This document shows positions 4,652-16,075 of a DNA stretch of 58,692 nt, one piece after another. Both the position numbers and the translations under genes were made by a program. Every line of letters begins with the position of its first letter. Position 1 is the stretch's first letter. Below the pieces are notes generated by a model. The model worked only from the letters and a program-made list of their open reading frames with translations. It ran no database searches and had not been told where the DNA came from. The DNA comes from Elainellaceae cyanobacterium. Lineage in GTDB: Bacteria > Cyanobacteriota > Cyanobacteriia > CAZCXK01. The stretch lies in contig JBNPEG010000001.1 in the NCBI GenBank assembly GCA_051117555.1, positions 45,334 to 104,025 on the forward strand, written 5' to 3'.

Positions 4652-6721
4652 TTGTTAGCTCTACTCAACCAAATTCGAGAAATCTTTGCTAGATGGTGGT
4701 CGGAATTCACCCTCCAGACCCGCCTAATGGCGGCTGCCACGCTGGTCGTCTCGCTGATCATGAGCGGTCTGACCTTCTGGGCAGTCAACACAATCCAGCA
4801 AGATGCGCGTCTGAACGACACTCGGTTTGGGCGCGATTTGGGATTGCTGCTGGCCGCGAATGTTGCGCCCCTGATCGGTGAAGACAATCGCACCGAGCTC
4901 GCTCGATTTTCTCATCGATTTTACAGCAGTACGTCGAGCATCCGCTACATGCTCTACGCCGACGAAGATGGCAATATCTTTTTCGGCATTCCATTTTCTG
5001 AGTCTGAGGTGCAAAATTCTTTGACCATTCGGCGGCGAATGCAGTTGCCAGAGAGTTACACCGAGAATATCGATACCCCGATGGTGCGGCAGCATCTTAC
5101 TCCCGATGGTCAGGTAACGGATGTGTTTGTGCCGCTCAACCACAACGGCAACTATCTGGGCGTTTTGGCGATCGGCATTAATCCCAATCCAACGGTTGTT
5201 GCCTCGTCTCACCTGACGCGAGACGTAACGATTGCCGTGTTTGTCTCAATTTGGGTGATGGTCATCTTAGGGGCAGTGTTCAATGCCTTAACGATTACCA
5301 AACCGATCAAGGAATTGCTCGTTGGCGTCAAAAATATTGCGGCTGGAAACTTTAAGCAGCGCATTGATCTGCCGCTCGGAGGCGAACTCGGAGAGCTCAT
5401 TCTCAATTTCAACGAGATGGCAGAGCGCCTGGAGCGCTACGAAGAGCAAAATATCGAAGAACTCACGGCAGAAAAGGCGAAACTAGAAACTCTGGTTGCA
5501 ACCATTGCAGATGGTGCGGTCTTGCTTGATGCCGATATGCATGTCGTCCTGGCAAATCCGACTGCCCGTCGCCTGTTTGGGTGGGAGGGCTATGACGACG
5601 TGCTGTCATCAAACGTGCTCGACTTCTTGCCGGCCCCCGTCAAGGCAGAGCTAGGGCATCCGCTGTATAAGATTGCCATGGGTGGGTTTCATACCGAGCA
5701 TCTGCGTGAACGAGAAGCCACCGAATTTCGAATTACGTTTCCAGAACCCACTCGTCGCACCGTTCGGATTTTACTTACGACGGTCCTCGATCAGGCAAAA
5801 GAGCATCTGAAAGGCATCGCCATTACGGTGCAAGATATTACTCGTGAGGTTGAGCTTAACGAAGCAAAAAGTCAGTTTATTAGCAACGTGTCTCACGAGC
5901 TTAGGACCCCTCTTTTTAATATCAAGTCATTCATTGAAACCCTGCACGACTACGGCGAAGATTTAACGGACACCGAACGACGAGAATTTCTGGATACCGC
6001 CAATCGGGAAACGGATCGCTTGACGCGCTTAGTGAATGATGTGCTGGACTTGTCTCGACTCGAGTCGAACCGACGCTATCGATTTGAAGCGGTTGAAATC
6101 GCCCAAGCTGTTGAGCAGACGCTGCGCACCTACCAACTCAACGCTAGAGATAAAGGCATCGAACTGATCCAAGATCTGGATCCAGATTTGCCTCCTGTAT
6201 TTGGCAACTACGATTTGTTGTTGCAGGTCTTTGCCAATTTGATTGGGAATGCGCTCAAATTTACACAACCGGGCGGATATGCAGCAATTCGGGCATATCA
6301 GCTAGAGCAACCGGGCGATCGCACCAATTTACCCAGCCATGTCCGCATCGAAATCTCAGATACCGGAATTGGCATAGACCCTGATGATCAAGAAGCAATT
6401 TTCGATCGCTTCTTCCGCGTCGAGAATCGAGTTCACACGTTAGAAGGCACGGGGCTTGGATTGTCTATCGTGCGCAATATTATTGAAAAACATCACAGCT
6501 CAGTTCATCTAATCAGTGAGGTCGGTGTTGGTACGACCTTTTGGTTTGATTTATCGGTTTATGAAGACGGAATATCGGTTTTAGATGACCGCAAAAGGCT
6601 GGATAGAGCCAAAGTTTCTCAGGAATCAAATTCTACGATACCGGTTGACGCTGCGGAGTCGATGGAAATCAGCCCACTCGCATTCACCTCAGTAAACGCA
6701 GATACGCTAACGAATGATTGA
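4652..6721 (+). CDS. nblS: Multi-stress sensor histidine kinase Hik33/NblS/DspA
   Basis: WWSEFTLQTRLMAAAT N-terminus, 2 TM, HAMP, PAS, NVSHELRTPL H-box, HATPase; follows purD as in other cyanobacteria; TTG start at 4652 inferred. Confidence 0.93.
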   Translation: MLALLNQIREIFARWWSEFTLQTRLMAAATLVVSLIMSGLTFWAVNTIQQDARLNDTRFGRDLGLLLAANVAPLIGEDNRTELARFSHRFYSSTSSIRYMLYADEDGNIFFGIPFSESEVQNSLTIRRRMQLPESYTENIDTPMVRQHLTPDGQVTDVFVPLNHNGNYLGVLAIGINPNPTVVASSHLTRDVTIAVFVSIWVMVILGAVFNALTITKPIKELLVGVKNIAAGNFKQRIDLPLGGELGELILNFNEMAERLERYEEQNIEELTAEKAKLETLVATIADGAVLLDADMHVVLANPTARRLFGWEGYDDVLSSNVLDFLPAPVKAELGHPLYKIAMGGFHTEHLREREATEFRITFPEPTRRTVRILLTTVLDQAKEHLKGIAITVQDITREVELNEAKSQFISNVSHELRTPLFNIKSFIETLHDYGEDLTDTERREFLDTANRETDRLTRLVNDVLDLSRLESNRRYRFEAVEIAQAVEQTLRTYQLNARDKGIELIQDLDPDLPPVFGNYDLLLQVFANLIGNALKFTQPGGYAAIRAYQLEQPGDRTNLPSHVRIEISDTGIGIDPDDQEAIFDRFFRVENRVHTLEGTGLGLSIVRNIIEKHHSSVHLISEVGVGTTFWFDLSVYEDGISVLDDRKRLDRAKVSQESNSTIPVDAAESMEISPLAFTSVNADTLTND

Positions 6722-6728
6722 CTGCAAC

Positions 6729-7508
6729 TTAATGATTGACCAAGACTGATTCTTGAGGGGGGCCTCTCAGCAAATCAGTGATTTCTTCCCGATAGTCTTG
6801 GAAATCAGCTTGGCGGCGAATGTGATAGTCGCGGTCAACCGGTAAGCAAATGGATGTTTCTCGCTGAACTGTCCCCGGACGCGCTGACAACGTGTAGATT
6901 CGCTGAGCTAAGAATACAGCTTCGTCAACATCGTGGGTAATCATCAAAATGGTTGTGTGGGTGCGTCGCCAAATCTGAAGCAGAAATTGTTGCATGGCTT
7001 CTTTGGTCTGCACGTCTAGCGCTCCAAACGGCTCATCCATCAGCAGCACCTTCGGCTGCGACGCTAGCGCACGGGCGATCGCCACCCGTTGTTTCATGCC
7101 GCCTGATAGCTCTTTAGGATGAGATGTGGCAAACTGCGCGAGCCCGACCACATCCAGATAATACGAGACTTGCTCCCGACGAATTGATTTTGAAACACCT
7201 CTAAGCTTTAGGCCAAACCCTACATTATCTGCGACCGTCATCCAGGGATATAGCGTATAGCGTTGAAACACCATGCCTCGATCGGCTCCAGGCCCAATCA
7301 CAGGAACTCCATCGACAGCGATGTTTCCTGCCGTTGGCAGATCTAATCCTGCGATCAGTCGCAGCAGAGTTGACTTACCTGATCCCGATGCACCCACGAC
7401 ACAGACGAATTCACCCGTTTTGACATGCAAATTGATATCTTTCAAGGCAACTAGAGGACCTTGACGCGTTTCGAATTGCTTATAGAGATGAGAGACTTCG
7501 AGGTGCAT
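6729..7508 (-). CDS. ABC transporter ATP-binding protein (NitT/TauT family; guanidine-cluster importer)
   Basis: GASGSGKST Walker A, LSGGMKQR, LLMDEPFGALD. Confidence 0.92.
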   Translation of the reverse strand: MHLEVSHLYKQFETRQGPLVALKDINLHVKTGEFVCVVGASGSGKSTLLRLIAGLDLPTAGNIAVDGVPVIGPGADRGMVFQRYTLYPWMTVADNVGFGLKLRGVSKSIRREQVSYYLDVVGLAQFATSHPKELSGGMKQRVAIARALASQPKVLLMDEPFGALDVQTKEAMQQFLLQIWRRTHTTILMITHDVDEAVFLAQRIYTLSARPGTVQRETSICLPVDRDYHIRRQADFQDYREEITDLLRGPPQESVLVNH

Positions 7509-7613
7509 ACATTTAAGGAGATCAGCAGGGCAGAGAGTAGGGGAGAGAGAATTGCTAAGAAATGCTTGGGGGGGAGACCAGTTCGGCGACCTCTAAGGCA
7601 CCCTCTACTCGCA

Positions 7614-8456
7614 CTAATCAAATGCCCATTTACAGGTAGAGCGCAGCAGCCAGCGTAATGAGAGATCGAGCACAAATCCAATTAGCCCCAGAATGATTAG
7701 GCAGGCAAAGATTTCATCCGTTCTAAAGAACTTTTGAGCGATTTCGATGCGTTTGCCTAAGCCGCTTTCGGCGGCAACCAGTTCAGCAACGACGACTAAA
7801 TTCCAGGCTGCCGCCATGTTGATGCGGAAGGTGTCGAGGATATTGGGCACTACATACGGTGTGATCACCTGAAACAGAATTTGACGCCTTAAACCACCCA
7901 GCGTATAGGTGGTTTCAATCAAATCTTTGGGGACAAACTTGACCGCATCCATAATCATCAGAATGTTATAAAACACGACTCCGATGAAAATTAGCGCGAG
8001 CTTAGGCTCTTCACCTAAGCCGAGATAGATAATCAGCAGGGGGATAAACGCCGGTGCAGGCATATAGCGCATAATGCCGATGATGGGTTCTAGCATCGAA
8101 CGAACACTGGCAAACGCTCCCATCGAAATCCCAATGGGGACAGAGATAATCGCCGCTAAGATAAACCCGCCGACCACCCGAAGAAAGCTTGCTAGCGTGT
8201 CACTCAGCAGAAACCCTTGCTGCCAAAGCTCTCCGATTGCAGTCGCTACTTGCACCGGGCTAGGGAGAAACTTTGGATTCACGATTCCAAGGCTAGACAC
8301 GACCCACCAGAGACCGAAAGGAACGGCTACTGATAGCCCAGTGAGTACCCAACTGAGCGATCGCGGCACATCTTCAGCAATCCGCCAAAAAACGGTGGGT
8401 CTTGATGCCTGATGCTCTAACGTGGGTTGTGCAGATTCAGCAGATAGGTGGGTCAC
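7614..8456 (-). CDS. ABC transporter permease (NitT/TauT family)
   Basis: Multiple TM helices, FLPSP, AWNLVVVAELVAAESGLG. Confidence 0.9.
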   Translation of the reverse strand: MTHLSAESAQPTLEHQASRPTVFWRIAEDVPRSLSWVLTGLSVAVPFGLWWVVSSLGIVNPKFLPSPVQVATAIGELWQQGFLLSDTLASFLRVVGGFILAAIISVPIGISMGAFASVRSMLEPIIGIMRYMPAPAFIPLLIIYLGLGEEPKLALIFIGVVFYNILMIMDAVKFVPKDLIETTYTLGGLRRQILFQVITPYVVPNILDTFRINMAAAWNLVVVAELVAAESGLGKRIEIAQKFFRTDEIFACLIILGLIGFVLDLSLRWLLRSTCKWAFD

Positions 8457-8514
8457 GGCTAACGCAATAAAGAACTCTAACGCTCACGCTAAATTGGGGT
8501 CAATTGAAGAGCCG

Positions 8515-9561
8515 TTACTGAGACTCAGCATAGGCCTGGACAAATTGATCGTCTAGCACAGCATCCAAATCGGGTGCTTCTGGAATAAACCCAACCTGCA
8601 CCATGAAATCAGCCATGACCTCAGCAGCATAGGGCATGTGCTCCATAGTATCGCCGGGGGAAAACGCTTCTAAATTTTCTTCCAGCGTAAAAATCTCAGT
8701 TCCCTCCAGATATTTATTAAACTCATCTGAGCTAATACTGGCACGCTCTGCCATGATTTCATTGGCTTGATCCGGATTTTCGTCCATAAACGCGAGAATA
8801 TCAAACCAGGTATCTACCAAGGCTTGAACCTGATCAGGCTGCTCATCGATTAGGGTTTGACTCACCACAAGTAAATCTGGAATTGCTCCTGGAAATTCTT
8901 TAGAACTTACTAATTCCTTGCTGCCGTCTCGCTCTAATGCAGTTTCCCAGAAAGGAACCCATCCAGCGAACGCATCAACCTGGCCCGCAGCGAATGCGGC
9001 GGCGGCTGCTCCAGTTTCTAGGTTCTTGATTTGAACATTTTCACGAGATAGCCCTGCCTCTTCGAGGGACAGGGTTAATAGAAAGTCTCCGACTACGCCT
9101 TCTTCGAGCGCGATGGTCTTGCCTTGTAGGTCTTCGACTGAGCCAATTTCCTCCGAGACGATGATCTTATCGTTGCCCGCCGAGTTGTCATTGACCAGTA
9201 CGGCAACTTCACCGTTCACGGCATCGCCAGCAAATGAGATGGTGTCATTGAGGGTTTGGCAGTTTGCATCGAGCTGCCCTGCGGCAAGGGCTTCCATCGA
9301 TGACAAATAGCCATCAAACCAGATGAGCTCGACATTGGCACCGTTTGCTTCGAACAGTCCTTCCTTTTCAGCGATCGCCCAAGGCCACCACCCTGCCCAA
9401 CTGCTGTATCCCATCTTGATGGGCTCTCCGCTGACTTCAGCAGTTTCGGGTGTCGTAGAGTCATCGGTTGCTGACGGCTCGGGAGACTGAGCGCAACTGA
9501 CAACAACTAGAAGGCTGCAAACAAAGGCTGCACATAGCGGTAAAAGCTTTCGGATATTCAT
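8515..9561 (-). CDS. ABC transporter substrate-binding lipoprotein (probable guanidine-type, Sll1080-like)
   Basis: Lipobox VVSC, GYSSWAGWWPW, NDNSAGNDKI; SD-like GAGAGGTGAG before ATG 9561; linked to gdmH. Confidence 0.85.
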   Translation of the reverse strand: MNIRKLLPLCAAFVCSLLVVVSCAQSPEPSATDDSTTPETAEVSGEPIKMGYSSWAGWWPWAIAEKEGLFEANGANVELIWFDGYLSSMEALAAGQLDANCQTLNDTISFAGDAVNGEVAVLVNDNSAGNDKIIVSEEIGSVEDLQGKTIALEEGVVGDFLLTLSLEEAGLSRENVQIKNLETGAAAAAFAAGQVDAFAGWVPFWETALERDGSKELVSSKEFPGAIPDLLVVSQTLIDEQPDQVQALVDTWFDILAFMDENPDQANEIMAERASISSDEFNKYLEGTEIFTLEENLEAFSPGDTMEHMPYAAEVMADFMVQVGFIPEAPDLDAVLDDQFVQAYAESQ

Positions 9562-9619
9562 CTCACCTCTCACAACATCTACTATCTACCGTACGACTTA
9601 GAAGCGTTTGACTATTACT

Positions 9620-9676
9620 AGCATTTTGCTTACTGAGCATTTTGCCTACTGAGCATTTTGCTTACTGAGCATTTTG
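9620..9676. repeat. 16-bp tandem repeat, ~3.5 copies
   Basis: agcattttgc(t/c)tactg x3 plus agcattttg. Confidence 0.9.
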
Positions 9677-9725
9677 TCGGTTCGTACCATTTCGTGGCTG
9701 TATTCACGCCCTGCATACGAAGAAA

Positions 9726-9787
9726 TATAGCGGTATGCGCTTGGGTTAAGTACGGTAGTGTACTTGACGCAATGGCACATTGCTATA
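9726..9787. repeat. TATAGC-bounded miniature repeat family B
   Basis: Both ends resemble the reverse complement of the element at 31479-31571. Confidence 0.6.
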
Positions 9788-9829
9788 TGTATCCAGTTCA
9801 ATTTCAATAAACATATAGACTTCCTGTCG

Positions 9830-9872
9830 AGGATAGAAGCTGTAGAACACCAAGATTGTTGTGATCAATACA
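9830..9872 (-). promoter_or_regulatory. Putative NtcA-activated promoter of the ABC importer
   Basis: Minus strand GTA-TTGATCAC-AAC, 22 nt, then TATCCT (TA-N3-T); one mismatch to GTA-N8-TAC. Confidence 0.65.
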
Positions 9873-10129
9873 TTCTGTGAGTCTTTTTACTAAATCATTA
9901 ATCTAAAAACGTAGAAACTGCTCCATACATTTTTAGAGTGGGCTTAAGCTACTACCGTCGTAAACGACATTGCAAATAATTGAGATTACATTGAGGTTAC
10001 GTGGGCGAAGCAGTATCAAAATCAGGGCGGTGTTGATTGGGTGGATCGTACGTTCTCAGGGTAAGACGTCGGGACGGTTCTACATTTTCCAACCCCAGGC
10101 ATTGCACCAGAGGCGTCGCAGCCAATGCC

Positions 10130-10618
10130 CTACACAAGCGTGTATTTATACTCAGCTTTTAACAGCTTTAAGGTGATTTGAGACTCGTAGTGGATGATGC
10201 CATCTACGCGATGGAGTTTGTCAAAAAAGGCGAGCAAGTCTTCGTGCGTCCCAAAATAAATGTCAACCACAATATTGAATCGCCCGGTCGTAATCGCAAC
10301 AAATCTCACTTCATCGAGTTGAGCAAGGGTCTCGGCAACCTCATCGACTTTTCCGCTTTCAGCATTCAGCGAGACGATCAAGAAATGGGGCATCCCCAGT
10401 TTTTCTGGATTAGGCCACGCCAAAACTTTAATCACACCCGATTGCAATAGCCGCTGGACACGATATCGGGCAGTTGCTTCGGGGATATTGAGCCGTTTTG
10501 CAATCTCGGTAAATGCCATCCGACCATCGAGGCGCAGCAAGTCGATCACATGTTGATCGATGGGGTCAAGAGGCGTGTTGTTAGGATTTGATTTTGAGTC
10601 ACTCAAGAGCATAGTCAC
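10130..10618 (-). CDS. Lrp/AsnC family transcriptional regulator
   Basis: LDPIDQHVIDLLRLDGRMAFTEIAKRLNIPEATARYRVQRL HTH plus C-terminal RAM domain (AITTGRFNI). Confidence 0.92.
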   Translation of the reverse strand: MTMLLSDSKSNPNNTPLDPIDQHVIDLLRLDGRMAFTEIAKRLNIPEATARYRVQRLLQSGVIKVLAWPNPEKLGMPHFLIVSLNAESGKVDEVAETLAQLDEVRFVAITTGRFNIVVDIYFGTHEDLLAFFDKLHRVDGIIHYESQITLKLLKAEYKYTLV

Positions 10619-10833
10619 ATAGATAGACTGCTTAATATTGCATTTCGTTGATAAATTAAATCATCACAATATTTATCATGATTCCTCAATTTTCTAACAC
10701 AAAATTACGTCAGTAACAATTCAAACAGTTTTAGATTAATGAATTCATTACTATTAAAAGTTGACGAAGAACAGCGCTGTTATACCGCGTTATACCGCGG
10801 CGTTTTGTAGGCATTTGGGCCGAAGGAGGGAGG

Positions 10834-11853
10834 GTGAAAGACGCATCCGAGAGGGAGGGTATCCGTTGGAAGAATGGATTGGCGATCGCCAGTACCCTAT
10901 TTGAATATGGGATTAGCATCAGCCTGCTCATTCAACCCCTCTGGATTCTCAAACTCGTGGGCGTGATTCTCCTAACACACAGTTTCGTGTGGTCAGCAGT
11001 ACTCACCCATGAGTTTATTCATGGAACTATCTTTAAGGCGCGATCGCTCAACGCAGGATTTGGGCGGCTGATGACTCATCTCAACGGTGCGTGTTATGCG
11101 CCTTACGAAGATATCGTGCAGCATCATTTCAACCACCATATCTATCATGTAGATTTGGTGCCCTTTGATAGTCCGACCTACTTCAAGAGGCTTCCGTCCC
11201 CAATTCGACGCCTATTCGTGGCGCTGGAGTGGGTCTACTTTCCAGTCTTTGAATTTGTGATGCGATCGCGCTTGATATTGGCCCCGTTTCAAGGTGTAGG
11301 GCAATCTTTAGAGCAATCTTCAGGGCGATCGCGTCTGCGCTGGCGCACGCTCTTTCTCCTGACCTATCGGTGTGCACTCTTGGGTCTATTAGGTTGGGTG
11401 TCGTGGAGCGGGCTACTGCTATATGGAATTTCGTATATTTGTTTTGTAAATCTGATGCGGTTTGCGGATGCCTTTCACCATACCTATGACTATGTCGTAA
11501 CTGGAGAACCTATTCCAACGCGCGATCGCGCCTACGAAGATGCAAATACATTTTCAAATCTCGTCTCGATTAATCATCCGTGGCTAAATCTGCTCTACCT
11601 AAATTTTGGCTACCATAATGCCCATCACCACGACATGCGCTGCCCCTGGTATGCGCTTCCAGACCTTCATCGACGGCTATATGGGAGTCAGTCAAAGGCG
11701 ATCATTCCTCTGTCGCAGCTTATTCTCAACTATCACCAATTCAGAATTGAGCGGCTATTTGGCGGCCAGAGTGCTGCTCCGTCCGAGGCTCACCCTCCCG
11801 CTCTAGCAGACCTCATCGGAGGAGTGGGGGTTTCATTCTTGACGCCGCCTTAA
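10834..11853 (+). CDS. Membrane fatty-acid desaturase/hydroxylase superfamily di-iron protein
   Basis: Three His boxes HEFIH, HFNHH, HNAHH; TM segments; start uncertain. Confidence 0.85.
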   Translation: MKDASEREGIRWKNGLAIASTLFEYGISISLLIQPLWILKLVGVILLTHSFVWSAVLTHEFIHGTIFKARSLNAGFGRLMTHLNGACYAPYEDIVQHHFNHHIYHVDLVPFDSPTYFKRLPSPIRRLFVALEWVYFPVFEFVMRSRLILAPFQGVGQSLEQSSGRSRLRWRTLFLLTYRCALLGLLGWVSWSGLLLYGISYICFVNLMRFADAFHHTYDYVVTGEPIPTRDRAYEDANTFSNLVSINHPWLNLLYLNFGYHNAHHHDMRCPWYALPDLHRRLYGSQSKAIIPLSQLILNYHQFRIERLFGGQSAAPSEAHPPALADLIGGVGVSFLTPP

Positions 11854-11889
11854 TGGCTTTGCCTTTTGCCTTTTCCTTCTGCCTTTTGC

Positions 11890-12144
11890 TATAGCAATCC
11901 CAAATCAGTTGTGTGAAAACCCAAAGGGGTTTGGGGACTTCGTCCCCGTATGCGTTTAGCGCATGTGTGAGATCCCCCGCTGACGCTGCCCGAAAAAGGG
12001 GGCTATTTACAGGGTGTTGAAGTCCCCTTTTTCAAGGGGGATTTAGGGGGATCTCTAGGGCGTTACGCTAAATACATACTCGTCCCCAAGAAGGGGGCAA
12101 CGTCCCCTCCACCCCCTTCTTATGAATCATTTAGGACTGCTATA
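11890..12144. mobile_element. Composite nested miniature inverted-repeat element
   Basis: Outer TIR tatagcaatcccaaat/atttaggactgctata; inner element 11948-12079 with 14-bp TIR (12/14) and 8-bp direct repeat TCGTCCCC on both sides. Confidence 0.8.
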
Positions 12145-12840
12145 TACCTTACTGGTCATATCCGTGTGTCTCGCGCTGACTTGTGCCTTTACCCAGTTAA
12201 ACCATGTATCAAGGCCATCGCCTGTTTTGGCTGAAACTGGGATAATCGTTGCATGAGAATTCATCTGCCGCACATTTGCCACAATCGTCTCGACATTGAC
12301 GTCAAGATGAGGCGCCAAATCCATTTTAGTGATCAGCAAACAGTCGGCTTCTTGAAACATAATCGGATACTTGAGCGGCTTGTCTTCGCCTTCTGTAATG
12401 CTTAGCAGTGCAACTTTTGCATGTTCGCCTACTTCAAACTCAGCCGGACATACCAAATTCCCAACATTTTCAACCAACACCAGGTCAAAGTCGGCAGGAG
12501 TGTAGTTGTGTTCGAGCTGATGAATACCTCCTGCCACCATCCTTGAGTCAAGATGGCACGATCGCCCCGTATTAATCGCAATTACCGGAACCCCATACTG
12601 CCGCAGGCGATCGGCATCTAGTTCGGTTGTCATGTCGCCTTCAATCACTGCAATCTTCAACTCTGAGCACAGCGCCGCCAACGTGCGTTCTAAAAGAACA
12701 GTCTTGCCTGCGCCAGGGCTGCTCATGATATTGAGACAGGTGATACCCCATGTATCAAAGTGCGATCGGTTATGGTCTGCGCCATCTTGATTGGCATGGA
12801 GGAGATTGATTCCGAGAGCGGTGTCAATGGGTTGATGCAT
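12127..12840 (-). CDS. hypB: HypB-type Ni-insertion GTPase (GhaB-like accessory for guanidine hydrolase)
   Basis: [44 protein letters not shown] 12840 overlaps the end of the hypA homolog. Confidence 0.92.
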
Positions 12841-13201
12841 GGTTAGACGTCGAGGGGTGATGTTCAATGCGATCGATCTTGAGTTCTCGTCCAGAGCGGA
12901 TATCGTCCATTGGAGCATTACACGTTGGGCACGCATAGCGATCGCCCATGTCAGGATAATACTCGTGCTGGCAGGAGTGACAAAACGCGATCAGGGGAGT
13001 TTCTCGAATGTTCAGCGTTGTATGTTCCAAAAACGTGTTTTGAGTTTGGATATCAAATGCAAACCGCAAACTCGCGGGCTCGACACAGGTAAACTGCCCC
13101 ACGATTAGATGAATGGTCGTGATGGACGGCTGCTCAGGCTGAGAGTCCCACCAATCTTTGACGGTGAGAATGAGCGCCTTGGTCATGTCTGTTTCATGCA
13201 T
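12824..13201 (-). CDS. hypA: HypA-type Ni metallochaperone (GhaA-like)
   Basis: MHE start, CHSC...CPTC zinc site, [11 protein letters not shown]. Confidence 0.92.
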
Positions 13202-13271
13202 ATCAATTCATGCAGACCCAAAACGGTGTGAGAAGTGAAACTAGTCCTTCAAGGATGGTGGATAGGCGTCA

Positions 13272-14465
13272 TTATGCCCATGCTGCATCGACTGCCATAT
13301 TCGCGTCTGCGTGAATATAGGCAGGGTTCTGGGCGCGAGGAAGCTGACCCGACAGCACCAGGTGCGCCATCGTGTCGCAAATCACGCGGGTCGCCATCAG
13401 TGACGTGATGTCGCTGATGTCATAGGGAGGCGATACTTCAACCACTTCTAATCCGCAGACTGGCGCATTTTGAACAATTTTGCCTAGCAGATAAAGGGCT
13501 TCACGGGGTAAGAGCCCACCCGGTTCGGGCCAGCCTGTCCCAGGGACAAATCCGGCATCAATGCAGTCAATATCAAAGCTGATATAAACGCAGTCGGTGC
13601 CATCCAGCGCCTTTTCTAAGGCAAAGTCAACTGCCGCATCTAGCCCCATCTCCGTGATATCGGTGACCGTGAGAATATTGGTTGCCCGCTCTCGGCAAAC
13701 CTTAACGCCTTGACGAGGCACCTGCCACCCGCCGATGCCAAGCTGTACGAGATTCTTCGCCGGAGCGTTTTCCATATTGGTCGCATGAAACCACGGGCAG
13801 GTATGCATGCGTTCGTCTAGGTCAGTCTCTTGGGTATCCACATGGCGATCGAAGTGAATGATTCCGACCTTTTTGTCGCCCAAATGTCGACACACTCCAC
13901 GCACAGTGGGAAACCCAATCGAGTGATCGCCCCCTAAAATGATTGGGAATGCCCCAGAACTAAAAATATGGGCGACCCCTTTCGAGATTTGGTCAAATGA
14001 TTTTTCATTGTTGGCTGGAATGGTAAAAACATCCCCCACATCACATAGGGTAATTTGCTCCCGCAGGTCAATCCCCAATTCAAAATTGTAGGGCGTGTAG
14101 AGAGCGGAGATGCGACGGATGCCCTGGGGGCCAAACCGCGTGCCCGGACGATAGGTTGTGCCGCTATCGTGCGGGACCCCCACGATCGCCACATCATAGG
14201 TGCCGACCTGACGCACATCTTCTAAATAAGGCGCTTTGAGGAAGGTATTGATACCCGCATAATGGGGCAATTCGCCTCGGGAAAACGTTGGAATTGAGCG
14301 ATCGCGCACGCTGTCTGCCGCTTCTAGCCCGTACTCCAAACCTCTAGACACCTCTTGCTGCCATCCTGTCATGGGCAGATGGGCTTCTCTCTCTAATGCG
14401 TGTTGAGCTTGAGTATGGGACGGTGACTCAGAATCCGGGCTTTGAAATAGGGGGTTTTCAGTCAT
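13272..14465 (-). CDS. gdmH: Ni-dependent guanidine hydrolase (ureohydrolase/agmatinase family, Sll1077-like)
   Basis: GWQQEV...IPTFSRGELPHYAGINTFLKAPY N-terminus, GGDHSIG, HFDRHVDTQE, RMHTCPW, SFDIDCIDAGFVPGTGWPEPGG; followed by hypA/hypB homologs. Confidence 0.9.
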   Translation of the reverse strand: MTENPLFQSPDSESPSHTQAQHALEREAHLPMTGWQQEVSRGLEYGLEAADSVRDRSIPTFSRGELPHYAGINTFLKAPYLEDVRQVGTYDVAIVGVPHDSGTTYRPGTRFGPQGIRRISALYTPYNFELGIDLREQITLCDVGDVFTIPANNEKSFDQISKGVAHIFSSGAFPIILGGDHSIGFPTVRGVCRHLGDKKVGIIHFDRHVDTQETDLDERMHTCPWFHATNMENAPAKNLVQLGIGGWQVPRQGVKVCRERATNILTVTDITEMGLDAAVDFALEKALDGTDCVYISFDIDCIDAGFVPGTGWPEPGGLLPREALYLLGKIVQNAPVCGLEVVEVSPPYDISDITSLMATRVICDTMAHLVLSGQLPRAQNPAYIHADANMAVDAAWA

Positions 14466-14661
14466 GTATTCAACCAACGCTGTTGAGACAAAAATCTAAT
14501 TGAGCTTCTAGAGTTAGCAACAAATAAACTCTGTAAATGTGCTAAAAACTACCAAATGGGCATCGTTGCCTCAGACACAATGATTTGTGAGGCGTTACCA
14601 AGTTTACTGTAAAGACGCAACAGACTTCATGTATTTCAGCTACATTTCCAATCGTGTGGAA

Positions 14662-14754
14662 TATAGCGATCCTAAATCGCGTGTGAATTGTGTATGAGCG
14701 GTGGGGCGGACGGCGCCCGCCCCACAGGCTCACAACCCATCTGGGATTGCTATA
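14662..14754. mobile_element. Miniature inverted-repeat element with the same TIR family as 11890-12144
   Basis: tatagcgatcctaaat ... atctgggattgctata enclosing palindrome gtggggcgg-acggcgc-ccgccccac. Confidence 0.7.
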
Positions 14755-14908
14755 GATTCAATTCGGTTTAGTACCTGGGTTAAGTTGGCGGGTCTACCCA
14801 CTGGTTTCCGATGCTTGGTATACTTCGTCATCTCGCCTAAATCCGTAGGATAGGAATTGGCGGGTTGGCTATAGGCGAAACTGTCGTTTTTGGGGTGCCC
14901 AAACAGGT

Positions 14909-16075
14909 ATGGATTTGCTTGAATATCAGGCTAAAGAGTTATTCCGTCAATATGGTATTCCGATTTTGCCATCTCAACGGATACAAAACCTCCAGGATCT
15001 TAAGAATCTCGAGATTCCCTATCCGATTGTGTTGAAGTCTCAAGTTCGTGTTGGAGGACGAGCAAAAGCTGGAGGCATTCGGTTTGTCGAAAATACGATT
15101 GATGCGATCGCCGCTGCCCAAGCATTGTTTAAGTTGCCGATTTCGGGTGATTGCCCTCAAGTGCTTTTAGCTGAAGCTAGATACAATTCTGAGCAGGAGC
15201 TATATTTGGCGATTGTGATCGATACTCAAGCTCGTCGTCCCGTATTGTTAGGGTCGGTTCAGGGTGGAGTCGGTATTGATTTAGCGATTGACCATATTCA
15301 AAAAGTAATTGTTGAGCAAGAGTTTACGTCATTCTATGCCCGCAAACTGGCGCTCAAAATGGGACTCAGCGGTGGCGTATTCCAGTCGGTAAGCCGTCTA
15401 ATCGAGCAAATGTGCCGACTGTTTATCGATAAAGATCTGGATCTGATTGAGATTAATCCTCTGGCGATTAACCCATCAGGAGACGTAATGGCATTAGATG
15501 GTAAGGTGACAGTTAACGAGGTCGCGTTGGGACGACATGATGATTTAGCCCAGCTAAAACCACACGTGACCCCGTCATCAGAGAGCTTACGGCGATCGCC
15601 CTCGCTACCAAGCCTTGAACCGGTTTCTCTGGGTGGAGACATTGGCATCGTATGCAATGGAGCCGGACTAACCATGACTACTCTAGATATGGTGTGTCAA
15701 GCGGGCGGCACCCCTGCTCATGTGCTTAATATTGGCGGAGAGTGCCGATATTCTTGGTCTTCGGCGATGCTGTTAGATCGCGTCGAGCATGGGCTCAGTC
15801 TGTTGACTCAGCTCCCAGATGTCCGCGTCATATTAGTCAATATCTTCAGCAATGGTGTCCCGTGTAGTCAAATTGCGGCAACCATCGCTCGCCATATTCG
15901 TCTAAATGCTCAAGAGCCGGTTCCTAGATTGGTAGTGCGGCTGGTAGGACAGCCGTTAGATCAGGCAAGAGACATTCTCTCGGCAGCCGATTTGGCCTTA
16001 GTGGATCAACTCGATGCCGCTGTTGACCAAGTTATCACCATGAGCCATCCTGAGCGGGCAAAGTCGTCGGCTTAA
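14909..16075 (+). CDS. sucC: Succinate--CoA ligase beta subunit
   Basis: MDLLEYQAKELF, GGRAKAGG, IEINPL, ALDGK, NGAGL. Confidence 0.9.
   Translation: MDLLEYQAKELFRQYGIPILPSQRIQNLQDLKNLEIPYPIVLKSQVRVGGRAKAGGIRFVENTIDAIAAAQALFKLPISGDCPQVLLAEARYNSEQELYLAIVIDTQARRPVLLGSVQGGVGIDLAIDHIQKVIVEQEFTSFYARKLALKMGLSGGVFQSVSRLIEQMCRLFIDKDLDLIEINPLAINPSGDVMALDGKVTVNEVALGRHDDLAQLKPHVTPSSESLRRSPSLPSLEPVSLGGDIGIVCNGAGLTMTTLDMVCQAGGTPAHVLNIGGECRYSWSSAMLLDRVEHGLSLLTQLPDVRVILVNIFSNGVPCSQIAATIARHIRLNAQEPVPRLVVRLVGQPLDQARDILSAADLALVDQLDAAVDQVITMSHPERAKSSA

Follow-up and report, generated by a model that had tools for sequence, protein, structure and literature searches.

How is a cyanobacterial guanidine assimilation cluster controlled when its leaders carry no guanidine riboswitch and a gene for an Lrp/AsnC-family regulator lies in its middle? 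The question is raised by a 58,692-nt stretch of the genome of an Elainellaceae cyanobacterium (G000, 100% complete), referred to here as the window; coordinates are window positions unless a contig or another locus is named. The cluster joins the guanidine hydrolase gene gdmH and its partner genes ghaA and ghaB to the importer genes gimABC, and between these two units lie the regulator gene, lrp, and a divergent desaturase-like gene. The reading that we favour, with modest confidence and on the strength of predicted control elements, is of a riboswitch-less guanidine cluster combined with an Lrp/desaturase module, in which the Lrp would control itself, the desaturase-like gene and probably gimABC. 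Such a regulatory add-on is unusual and lineage-restricted, and it is placed on a known guanidine system.

Two other accounts have to be weighed. The desaturase-lrp pair may be a self-contained passenger inserted between two operons, with no regulatory or metabolic tie to either, its promoter type and a sequence box that it shares with the gimA upstream region reflecting common NtcA control or chance. Alternatively, as a sequence-only reading of the same DNA had proposed, the RAM domain of the Lrp may bind guanidine or a close guanidino compound and replace the riboswitch, switching on gdmH-ghaAB and gimABC in the presence of substrate.

A known guanidine cluster split by a two-gene module

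The genes of the cluster (window 6729-14477) are as follows.

6729..7508, minus strand: gimC, ATP-binding cassette (ABC) transporter ATPase (PF00005, ABC_tran, E 4.5e-33; best NCBIfam match of the taurine/nitrate ATPase type)
7614..8456, minus strand: gimB, ABC transporter permease (PF00528, BPD_transp_1, E 2.5e-24; TauC-like)
8515..9573, minus strand: gimA, NMT1/SsuA-type substrate-binding protein (PF13379 and PF09084; TIGR01728, 273 bits, above cut-off)
10130..10618, minus strand: lrp, Lrp/AsnC-family regulator with a helix-turn-helix (HTH) and a RAM domain (PF13412, PF13404, PF01037)
10834..11853, plus strand: fatty acid (FA)-desaturase-family membrane di-iron protein (FA_desaturase, PF00487, E 1.5e-32)
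12127..12936, minus strand: ghaB, hypB-like nickel GTPase (TIGR00073, 304 bits, above cut-off)
12824..13201, minus strand: ghaA, hypA-like nickel chaperone, directly downstream of gdmH (TIGR00100, 114.7 bits, above cut-off)
13272..14477, minus strand: gdmH, ortholog of the Ni-dependent guanidine hydrolase (PF00491, arginase family)

Domain searches recover the content and order that the sequence-only reading had described, with gdmH-hypA-hypB and the ABC genes co-oriented and split by the Lrp/AsnC gene and the divergent desaturase-like gene; the latter two form a two-gene module between the gdmH-ghaAB and gimABC units. The GdmH of the window matches the crystallised Synechocystis guanidine hydrolase (7esr/7oi1) over residues 22-400 (E 2e-239, 797.8 bits), and GdmH identity across cyanobacterial families is 81-99%. 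The window gimA is 45-82% identical to the gdmH-adjacent gimA genes of relatives, and gimABC homologues adjoin gdmH in 13 of 25 mapped loci. With an Sll1077-orthologous hydrolase, HypA/HypB-like genes 3' of gdmH and a linked NMT1/SsuA-type importer, the locus is, judged by homology and gene order, a genuine gdmH-ghaAB and gimABC guanidine assimilation cluster of the known kind. It is flanked by housekeeping genes, with purD and a PAS/HAMP histidine kinase gene on one side and sucCD and accD on the other. The histidine kinase adjoining gimC was considered as an alternative sensor and set aside, as its gene sits after purD in ordinary synteny that is kept in relatives.

Absence of a guanidine riboswitch

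The sequence-only reading had seen no guanidine riboswitch, and covariance-model searches of the window and of the genome bear this out. The whole window gave no match to any of 4227 Rfam families, guanidine-III (RF01763) included, in cmscan at gathering thresholds, and at E<=10 the interval 6000-15500 returned two unrelated matches alone (a Tetrahymena small nucleolar RNA and a plant-virus pseudoknot). The complete genome contains no match to RF00442 (guanidine-I) or RF01068 (guanidine-II); in the genome search for RF01763 the control was also silent everywhere. Shuffled sequences fold as well as the two leaders (z 0.44 and -0.68), and on this result and the E<=10 Rfam scan a hidden or novel riboswitch within the leaders was rejected.

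How exceptional this is was judged from 151 cyanobacterial genomes, 74 of which have a gdmH match at E<=1e-100. Six partial or broken gdmH copies were left out (G106, G032, G074, G015, G066 and G006; three of these with RF00442 upstream), giving 68 full-length loci, 67 of them testable and one at a contig edge. RF00442 lies just upstream of gdmH on the same strand above cut-off in 44/68 loci and below cut-off (36-59 bits) in 5/68; a further 2/68 have only a divergently oriented copy, and 16/68 have none. Among testable loci, therefore, RF00442 is just upstream in 49/67 and missing in 18/67, so that it is not a defining feature of the guanidine cluster. Seven families are represented among the 16 loci free of RF00442, which include those of all four genomes from the window's family. 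The survey scan used stricter filters; hence the window and 11 riboswitch-less loci were re-scanned at gathering thresholds (G057, G091, G108 and G120 left out), with no match in any and positive results for two control loci. The riboswitch-less state is ordinary, and by this survey about a quarter of cyanobacterial gdmH loci lack the guanidine-I riboswitch.

The survey also turned up back-to-back divergent pairs of guanidine-I riboswitches, 200-400 nt apart, in five genomes (G058:C1:293675-294178, G041:C9:41579-42120, G133:C5:2948785-2949386, G109:C38:93341-93851 and G014:C74:222026-222512).

The Lrp/AsnC regulator and its subfamily

The window Lrp has both domains of its family, an AsnC-type HTH (PF13404, E 4.6e-11) and a RAM domain (AsnC_trans_reg, PF01037, E 2.8e-10), and its closest solved structures are 7fby, PH0140 and FL11/PH1519. 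Its sequence is 99% identical between the window and same-genus G001, as against 86-93% for the neighbours hypA, hypB, the desaturase-like gene and sucCD, and by this comparison lrp is strongly constrained. RAM domains that have been characterised bind amino acids.

An alignment search of GTDB species for the Lrp subfamily gave 80 loci, 77 with a usable Lrp match, and neighbours were counted within 3.5 kb of lrp. The commonest partner is a desaturase-like gene (17/77 loci), followed by creatininase (12/77), amidohydrolase (9/77), PuuE-like deacetylase and a second arginase-family hydrolase (8/77 each) and Rieske oxygenase (7/77); ABC transporter genes also occur. Only 2/77 loci have gdmH near lrp, and 31/77 have none of the query genes. 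With such varied catabolic neighbours, members of the subfamily would thus act as local regulators, in filamentous cyanobacteria, of clusters that break down nitrogen compounds of various kinds. The repeated company of creatininase and arginase-family hydrolase genes agrees with a regulator that senses guanidino compounds; that the desaturase-like gene is the commonest partner speaks against the Lrp having taken over the riboswitch's role. Across the subfamily the recognition helix is invariant in the alignment and the RAM domain is variable. One aspartate of the alignment (within QLDEVRF in the window Lrp) is common to the gdmH- or gim-linked clades and G027.

The Lrp-desaturase pairing itself occurs twice in G000 and in G001 and once each in G002 (as the paralog), G003, G149, G125 and G027. 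The pair is found in many unrelated contexts, as a passenger would be. The paralogous pair of G000, G001 and G002 (identities 63% and about 41%) makes the same point within the window's own genome, where a Bmp/PnrA-type ABC transporter flanks it at one end and an alpha/beta hydrolase with a 531-aa amidohydrolase at the other (L058, contig C150, 128-8549).

The desaturase-like protein belongs to the PF00487 superfamily, with all three histidine boxes intact in its translation. A structure search found no solved structural relative, and the label in a protein atlas is "putative fatty acid desaturase" only. Elsewhere, desaturase-like genes accompany creatininase, amidohydrolase and deacetylase genes, and this catabolic company, together with the intact histidine boxes, suggests a catabolic oxygenase and not a lipid desaturase.

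Two further arrangements were seen in the subfamily. In about ten cyanobacteria (L117, L119, L125, L128, L133, L146 and others), lrp and a Rieske oxygenase gene are divergent, and genes for a creatininase and for an arginase-family hydrolase, the latter about 33% identical to GdmH, come next in that order; this conserved cluster may encode a creatinine/creatine-type pathway. In G027 (L056, 7367-12938), an NMT1-type ABC transporter follows a second guanidine-I riboswitch (9755-9878, 74.7 bits), and a phytochelatin synthase gene alone lies between that transporter and the Lrp-desaturase pair.

Control regions and NtcA-type promoters

The candidate DNA targets are the regions upstream of lrp, gimA and gdmH.

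9830..9871, minus strand: predicted NtcA-type gimABC promoter (GTA-N8-AAC, 22 nt, TATCCT), identical in G001 and G002
9891..9912, minus strand: shared box in the gimA upstream block, matching the lrp-desaturase intergenic region at 18/22 nt in inverted orientation
10619..10833, no strand assigned: predicted bidirectional lrp-desaturase control region, with an NtcA-type promoter at 10713-10754 on the plus strand (GTA-N8-AAC, 22 nt, TACTAT) and the shared box at 10725-10746
14478..14908, minus strand: region upstream of gdmH, lacking a riboswitch and any recognisable NtcA-type promoter

A Gibbs-type motif search of lrp-upstream regions gave a mixed, low-information motif, and word enrichment and anchoring were used instead. 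Enrichment found a core element in 23/75 lrp-upstream regions and in 2/192 control segments. Read on the opposite strand, the element is GTA-N8-AAC with TAN3T 21-23 nt further on, which is the geometry of an NtcA-activated promoter by the consensus cited in PMC12704784. With the pattern GTA-N8-WAC-N21-23-TAN3T, matches on the strand of the divergent gene were found in 24/76 lrp-upstream regions (21 of them with AAC), in 1/279 controls and in 0/76 regions on the lrp strand. The whole window, on both strands, holds two matches, one ahead of the desaturase-like gene and one ahead of gimA. A model of 44 columns, derived from 19 lrp-upstream regions in other genera and scored over the 58.7-kb window, places its top match in the lrp-desaturase region (10709-10752, minus strand) and ranks the gimA upstream block second, which argues against an unconnected passenger. 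The gimA promoter sits in a block about 90% conserved with G002 (window 9804-9988).

The 18/22 box match between the gimA block and the lrp-desaturase region was reached by 1/200 shuffles, and G001 also shows 18/22 (3/200 shuffles); the statistics are modest, as a passenger insertion would allow. In the same shuffle-tested comparison no such sharing was found in G002, G003, G005 or G053. The 11-mer core of the box was tried as a genome-wide regulon marker and rejected: there are 22 matches, as against 3 for the reversed control, mostly in coding frames and four in a repeat family. These four are copies of a repeat of about 55 nt that holds the 11-mer (L084, L086, L087 and L093, on contigs C152, C187, C203 and C240 of G000).

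Upstream of gdmH the picture is different. The best match to the lrp control region is 15/22 nt, a level reached by 174/200 shuffles, and there is no Lrp-associated element; nor does the NtcA-type pattern match there, in a scan of low sensitivity that found the gdmH promoter in just 7/25 loci. About 190 nt directly ahead of gdmH are conserved in G001 and G002. Further upstream lies a GC-rich, hairpin-like insert of about 81 nt (about 14665-14745), present in this genome only, with a sigma-70-like hexamer pair (14687-14660) at its edge. A GTA-N7-TAC sequence at 14631-14643 was rejected, having the wrong spacing and no conservation in G001 or G002. In riboswitch-bearing relatives the gdmH promoter, where detected, is the canonical TAC form 260-370 nt upstream, and in G005 and G053 it is the AAC form 82 nt upstream, inside a conserved lrp control region.

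The AAC form is itself widespread in the window's genome. There, the TAC form precedes glnA, and the AAC form precedes genes for an amidase, a PuuE-like deacetylase, a Rieske protein, glycogen phosphorylase and phosphoketolase. Being placed ahead of such varied genes, the AAC form looks like a general nitrogen-stress promoter and not an Lrp-specific mark, and its presence ahead of unrelated genes fits a passenger module too. Two of these promoters lie within 3 kb of each other on contig C92 (959-5132; L185 and L186), ahead of the Rieske-domain and PuuE-like deacetylase genes; this cluster is of the kind that adjoins Lrp genes in other genomes, and no Lrp was noticed at C92.

One further feature of the gimA leader is peculiar to this genome.

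9611..9803, no strand assigned: gimA leader insert without counterpart in G001 or G002, containing a 16-nt unit repeated 3.9 times (9615-9676)

Within the same insert, TATATT follows a perfect GTA-N8-TAC palindrome (9750-9763). The palindrome was rejected as the gimA NtcA site, since the insert is absent from G001 and G002 and the count of such palindromes in the window is at chance (7 found, 4.3 expected); the 16-nt tandem repeat was rejected as a regulator array, being specific to this genome.

Linkage of lrp to gdmH in relatives

Gene order in same-genus G001 is identical to that of the window. In G002, of the same genus, a clean 587-bp deletion (L034 7184/7185, corresponding to window 9989-10575) has removed lrp save its first 43 nt and left intact the desaturase gene, the lrp-desaturase intergenic region, the gimA promoter block and the rest of the cluster. 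In G003, of the same family, desaturase-lrp-gimABC-kinase lie on one contig and gdmH-hypA-hypB on another. The sequence-only reading had made its case depend on the Lrp/desaturase pair being linked to gdmH in relatives, and this fails in part, with the pair unlinked in G003 and lrp deleted in G002. Both genomes count against a guanidine-sensing Lrp that drives gdmH, and the loss in G002 without visible change to the cluster is also what would be expected of a passenger. Against a passenger stands the desaturase-lrp-gimABC order, which two genera of the family preserve, also where gdmH has moved away.

In a 401-genome sample, gdmH was found at E<=1e-200 in 180 genomes and the Lrp subfamily at E<=1e-35 in 42. 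Both occur in 27, and they are adjacent only in G000, G001, G005 and G053; in G088 they are probably adjacent too, both lying at contig ends. The gdmH-adjacent Lrps come from two genera and fall in separate well-supported clades of the tree, its deeper branching being unresolved. All four gdmH loci with an adjacent subfamily Lrp lack RF00442, and 0/49 riboswitch-bearing loci have an Lrp nearby. Up to this point the anti-correlation of riboswitch and Lrp that the sequence-only reading had anticipated stands, and it favours a guanidine-sensing regulator. It weakens on the other side of the comparison, where 12/16 RF00442-free loci also have no Lrp nearby; riboswitch loss thus needs no Lrp.

The arrangement in G005 and G053, of a Leptolyngbya-like genus, is of another kind. 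Here about 165 bp separate the divergent genes lrp and gdmH and a desaturase gene is missing; further along the cluster come a glutamine-synthetase-like gene, ghaB, gimABC, and genes for a Rieske oxygenase and a hydrolase. With the gdmH NtcA-type promoter falling within the conserved control region of lrp, this arrangement speaks more strongly for a guanidine-linked Lrp, by gene order and predicted promoter position, than any other evidence, but it belongs to another genus than the window's. It also bears on the passenger account, since a second genus has independently placed a same-subfamily Lrp against gdmH. The glutamine-synthetase-like gene (453 aa) lies between ghaA and ghaB in G005 (L047 6572-9346) and in G053 (L067), and G011 (L051) has a gap of about 1.6 kb in that position. 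The Rieske oxygenase and alpha/beta hydrolase genes follow gimC in G005 and G053.

Proposed mechanism and rival explanations

We infer all of the binding, all of the regulation and the ligand of the Lrp from the comparisons above. In the favoured reading, the Lrp would bind the lrp-desaturase control region and there regulate its own gene and the desaturase-like gene's NtcA-type promoter. It would probably also modulate, in the window's genus, the NtcA-type gimABC promoter directly downstream, which bears a copy of the shared box. Nitrogen limitation, acting through NtcA, would be the basal signal, and NtcA-type promoters on the glnA, amidase, deacetylase, Rieske, glycogen phosphorylase and phosphoketolase genes fit such a nitrogen-stress regulon. 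The Lrp would add a substrate-specific signal, its ligand more likely being amino-acid-like or a guanidino precursor than free guanidine. The gdmH-ghaAB unit would have its own promoter, with no sign of Lrp control there. Control of lrp itself and of the divergent desaturase-like gene is the most likely part of this scheme, and control of gimABC in the window's genus is plausibly added to it.

Several observations weigh against this reading. G002 has no lrp at this locus and yet keeps the gimA promoter block, so that the local Lrp is dispensable there; the 63%-identical paralog remains. About 2-3 chance matches to the NtcA-type pattern are expected from base composition in a window of this size, which makes the positions of the two matches informative and their count not. 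The shared box was not found upstream of gimA in G003, G005 or G053, and the 22 genomic copies of its 11-mer core lie mostly inside coding frames or the repeat family. Finally, the GTA-N8-AAC element would fit NtcA, Lrp or both as its binder.

Among the alternatives, the passenger insertion fares best, and we nevertheless consider it unlikely. The many contexts of the desaturase-lrp pair, the paralog, the G002 deletion, the spread of AAC-type promoters and the modest box statistics all agree with it; the family-wide gene order, the independent placement in the second genus and the rank of the gimA block are harder to reconcile with it.

A guanidine-sensing Lrp that replaces the riboswitch appears decidedly improbable. 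The riboswitch is indeed absent, the Lrp-adjacent gdmH loci are all riboswitch-less, and a 2025 minireview, in the portion drawn on here, allows for regulatory proteins as guanidine receptors (PMC12186494). The gdmH promoter region of the window, however, lies 3.9 kb from lrp and has neither a common element nor an NtcA-type site. Adjacency in 4 of the 27 genomes that have both genes, the RF00442-free loci without an Lrp nearby and the binding of amino acids by characterised RAM domains tell against it as well.

More doubtful still is the boldest form of the idea, that the Lrps of this subfamily are the first protein sensors for guanidine or guanidino compounds, which would directly gate gdmH from the region of about 165 bp in G005 and G053 and, in the window's genus, would couple gimABC uptake and a desaturase-family oxygenase that frees guanidine from a substituted guanidine to the presence of substrate, in place of the riboswitch.

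Significance

According to the portion of the 2025 minireview drawn on here, riboswitches are the sole receptors of guanidine known beyond transporters and enzymes, and guanidine-binding regulatory proteins are still to be found (PMC12186494). A literature search that did not cover supplements found no paper tying Lrp/AsnC to guanidine in cyanobacteria, and, supplements aside, the word "Lrp" is absent from PMC12704784. From the survey comes one concrete protein candidate for substrate-specific control of a guanidine cluster, with defined candidate DNA targets, and the cleanest case for protein-based control is the locus type of G005 and G053 and not the window. The survey also flags Lrp-linked nitrogen-scavenging clusters in filamentous cyanobacteria, with creatininase, arginase-family, Rieske, desaturase-like and amidohydrolase genes. 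Should the Lrp sense no guanidino compound, the locus would be an ordinary guanidine cluster under NtcA control, to which a passenger module has been added.

Comparison with known systems

The closest known system is that of Synechocystis sp. PCC 6803, where, as described in the part of PMC12704784 drawn on here, sll1077-1079 and sll1080-1082 form two NtcA-dependent units, RF00442 lies in the gdmH leader and the gimA promoter is NtcA-dependent. The account of sll1077-sll1082 in the sequence-only reading, with a guanidine-I riboswitch and NtcA, agrees with that description. All six genes, their order and their division into two units recur in the window, along with an orthologous GdmH and a predicted NtcA-type promoter ahead of gimA. 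Unlike in Synechocystis, the gdmH leader of the window lacks RF00442, no NtcA-type site can be recognised ahead of gdmH, and lrp and the desaturase-like gene stand between ghaB and gimA.

A second parallel is found in guanidine-riboswitch operons that contain a methylguanidine dioxygenase and a lyase, as far as the consulted portion of PMC12508155 describes them. Both there and in the window, a cluster for guanidine utilisation contains an oxygenase gene, and the analogy suggests that substituted guanidines may be funnelled to guanidine or urea. The enzyme described in that portion of PMC12508155 is a 2-oxoglutarate dioxygenase, soluble and controlled by a riboswitch; that of the window is a membrane di-iron desaturase-family protein beside a protein regulator, and it is known from sequence alone.

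The regulator itself resembles the Lrp/AsnC "feast/famine" local regulators, a family expanded into many paralogs that each lie beside a different catabolic cluster. As in FL11/PH1519 and in DoeX, reportedly an Lrp/AsnC-type regulator of ectoine catabolism, the window Lrp combines an HTH with a RAM domain, and its gene is divergent from a putative catabolic gene across conserved intergenic sequence. Unlike in those examples, the partner in the window is a desaturase-family gene and the control region contains an NtcA-type promoter.

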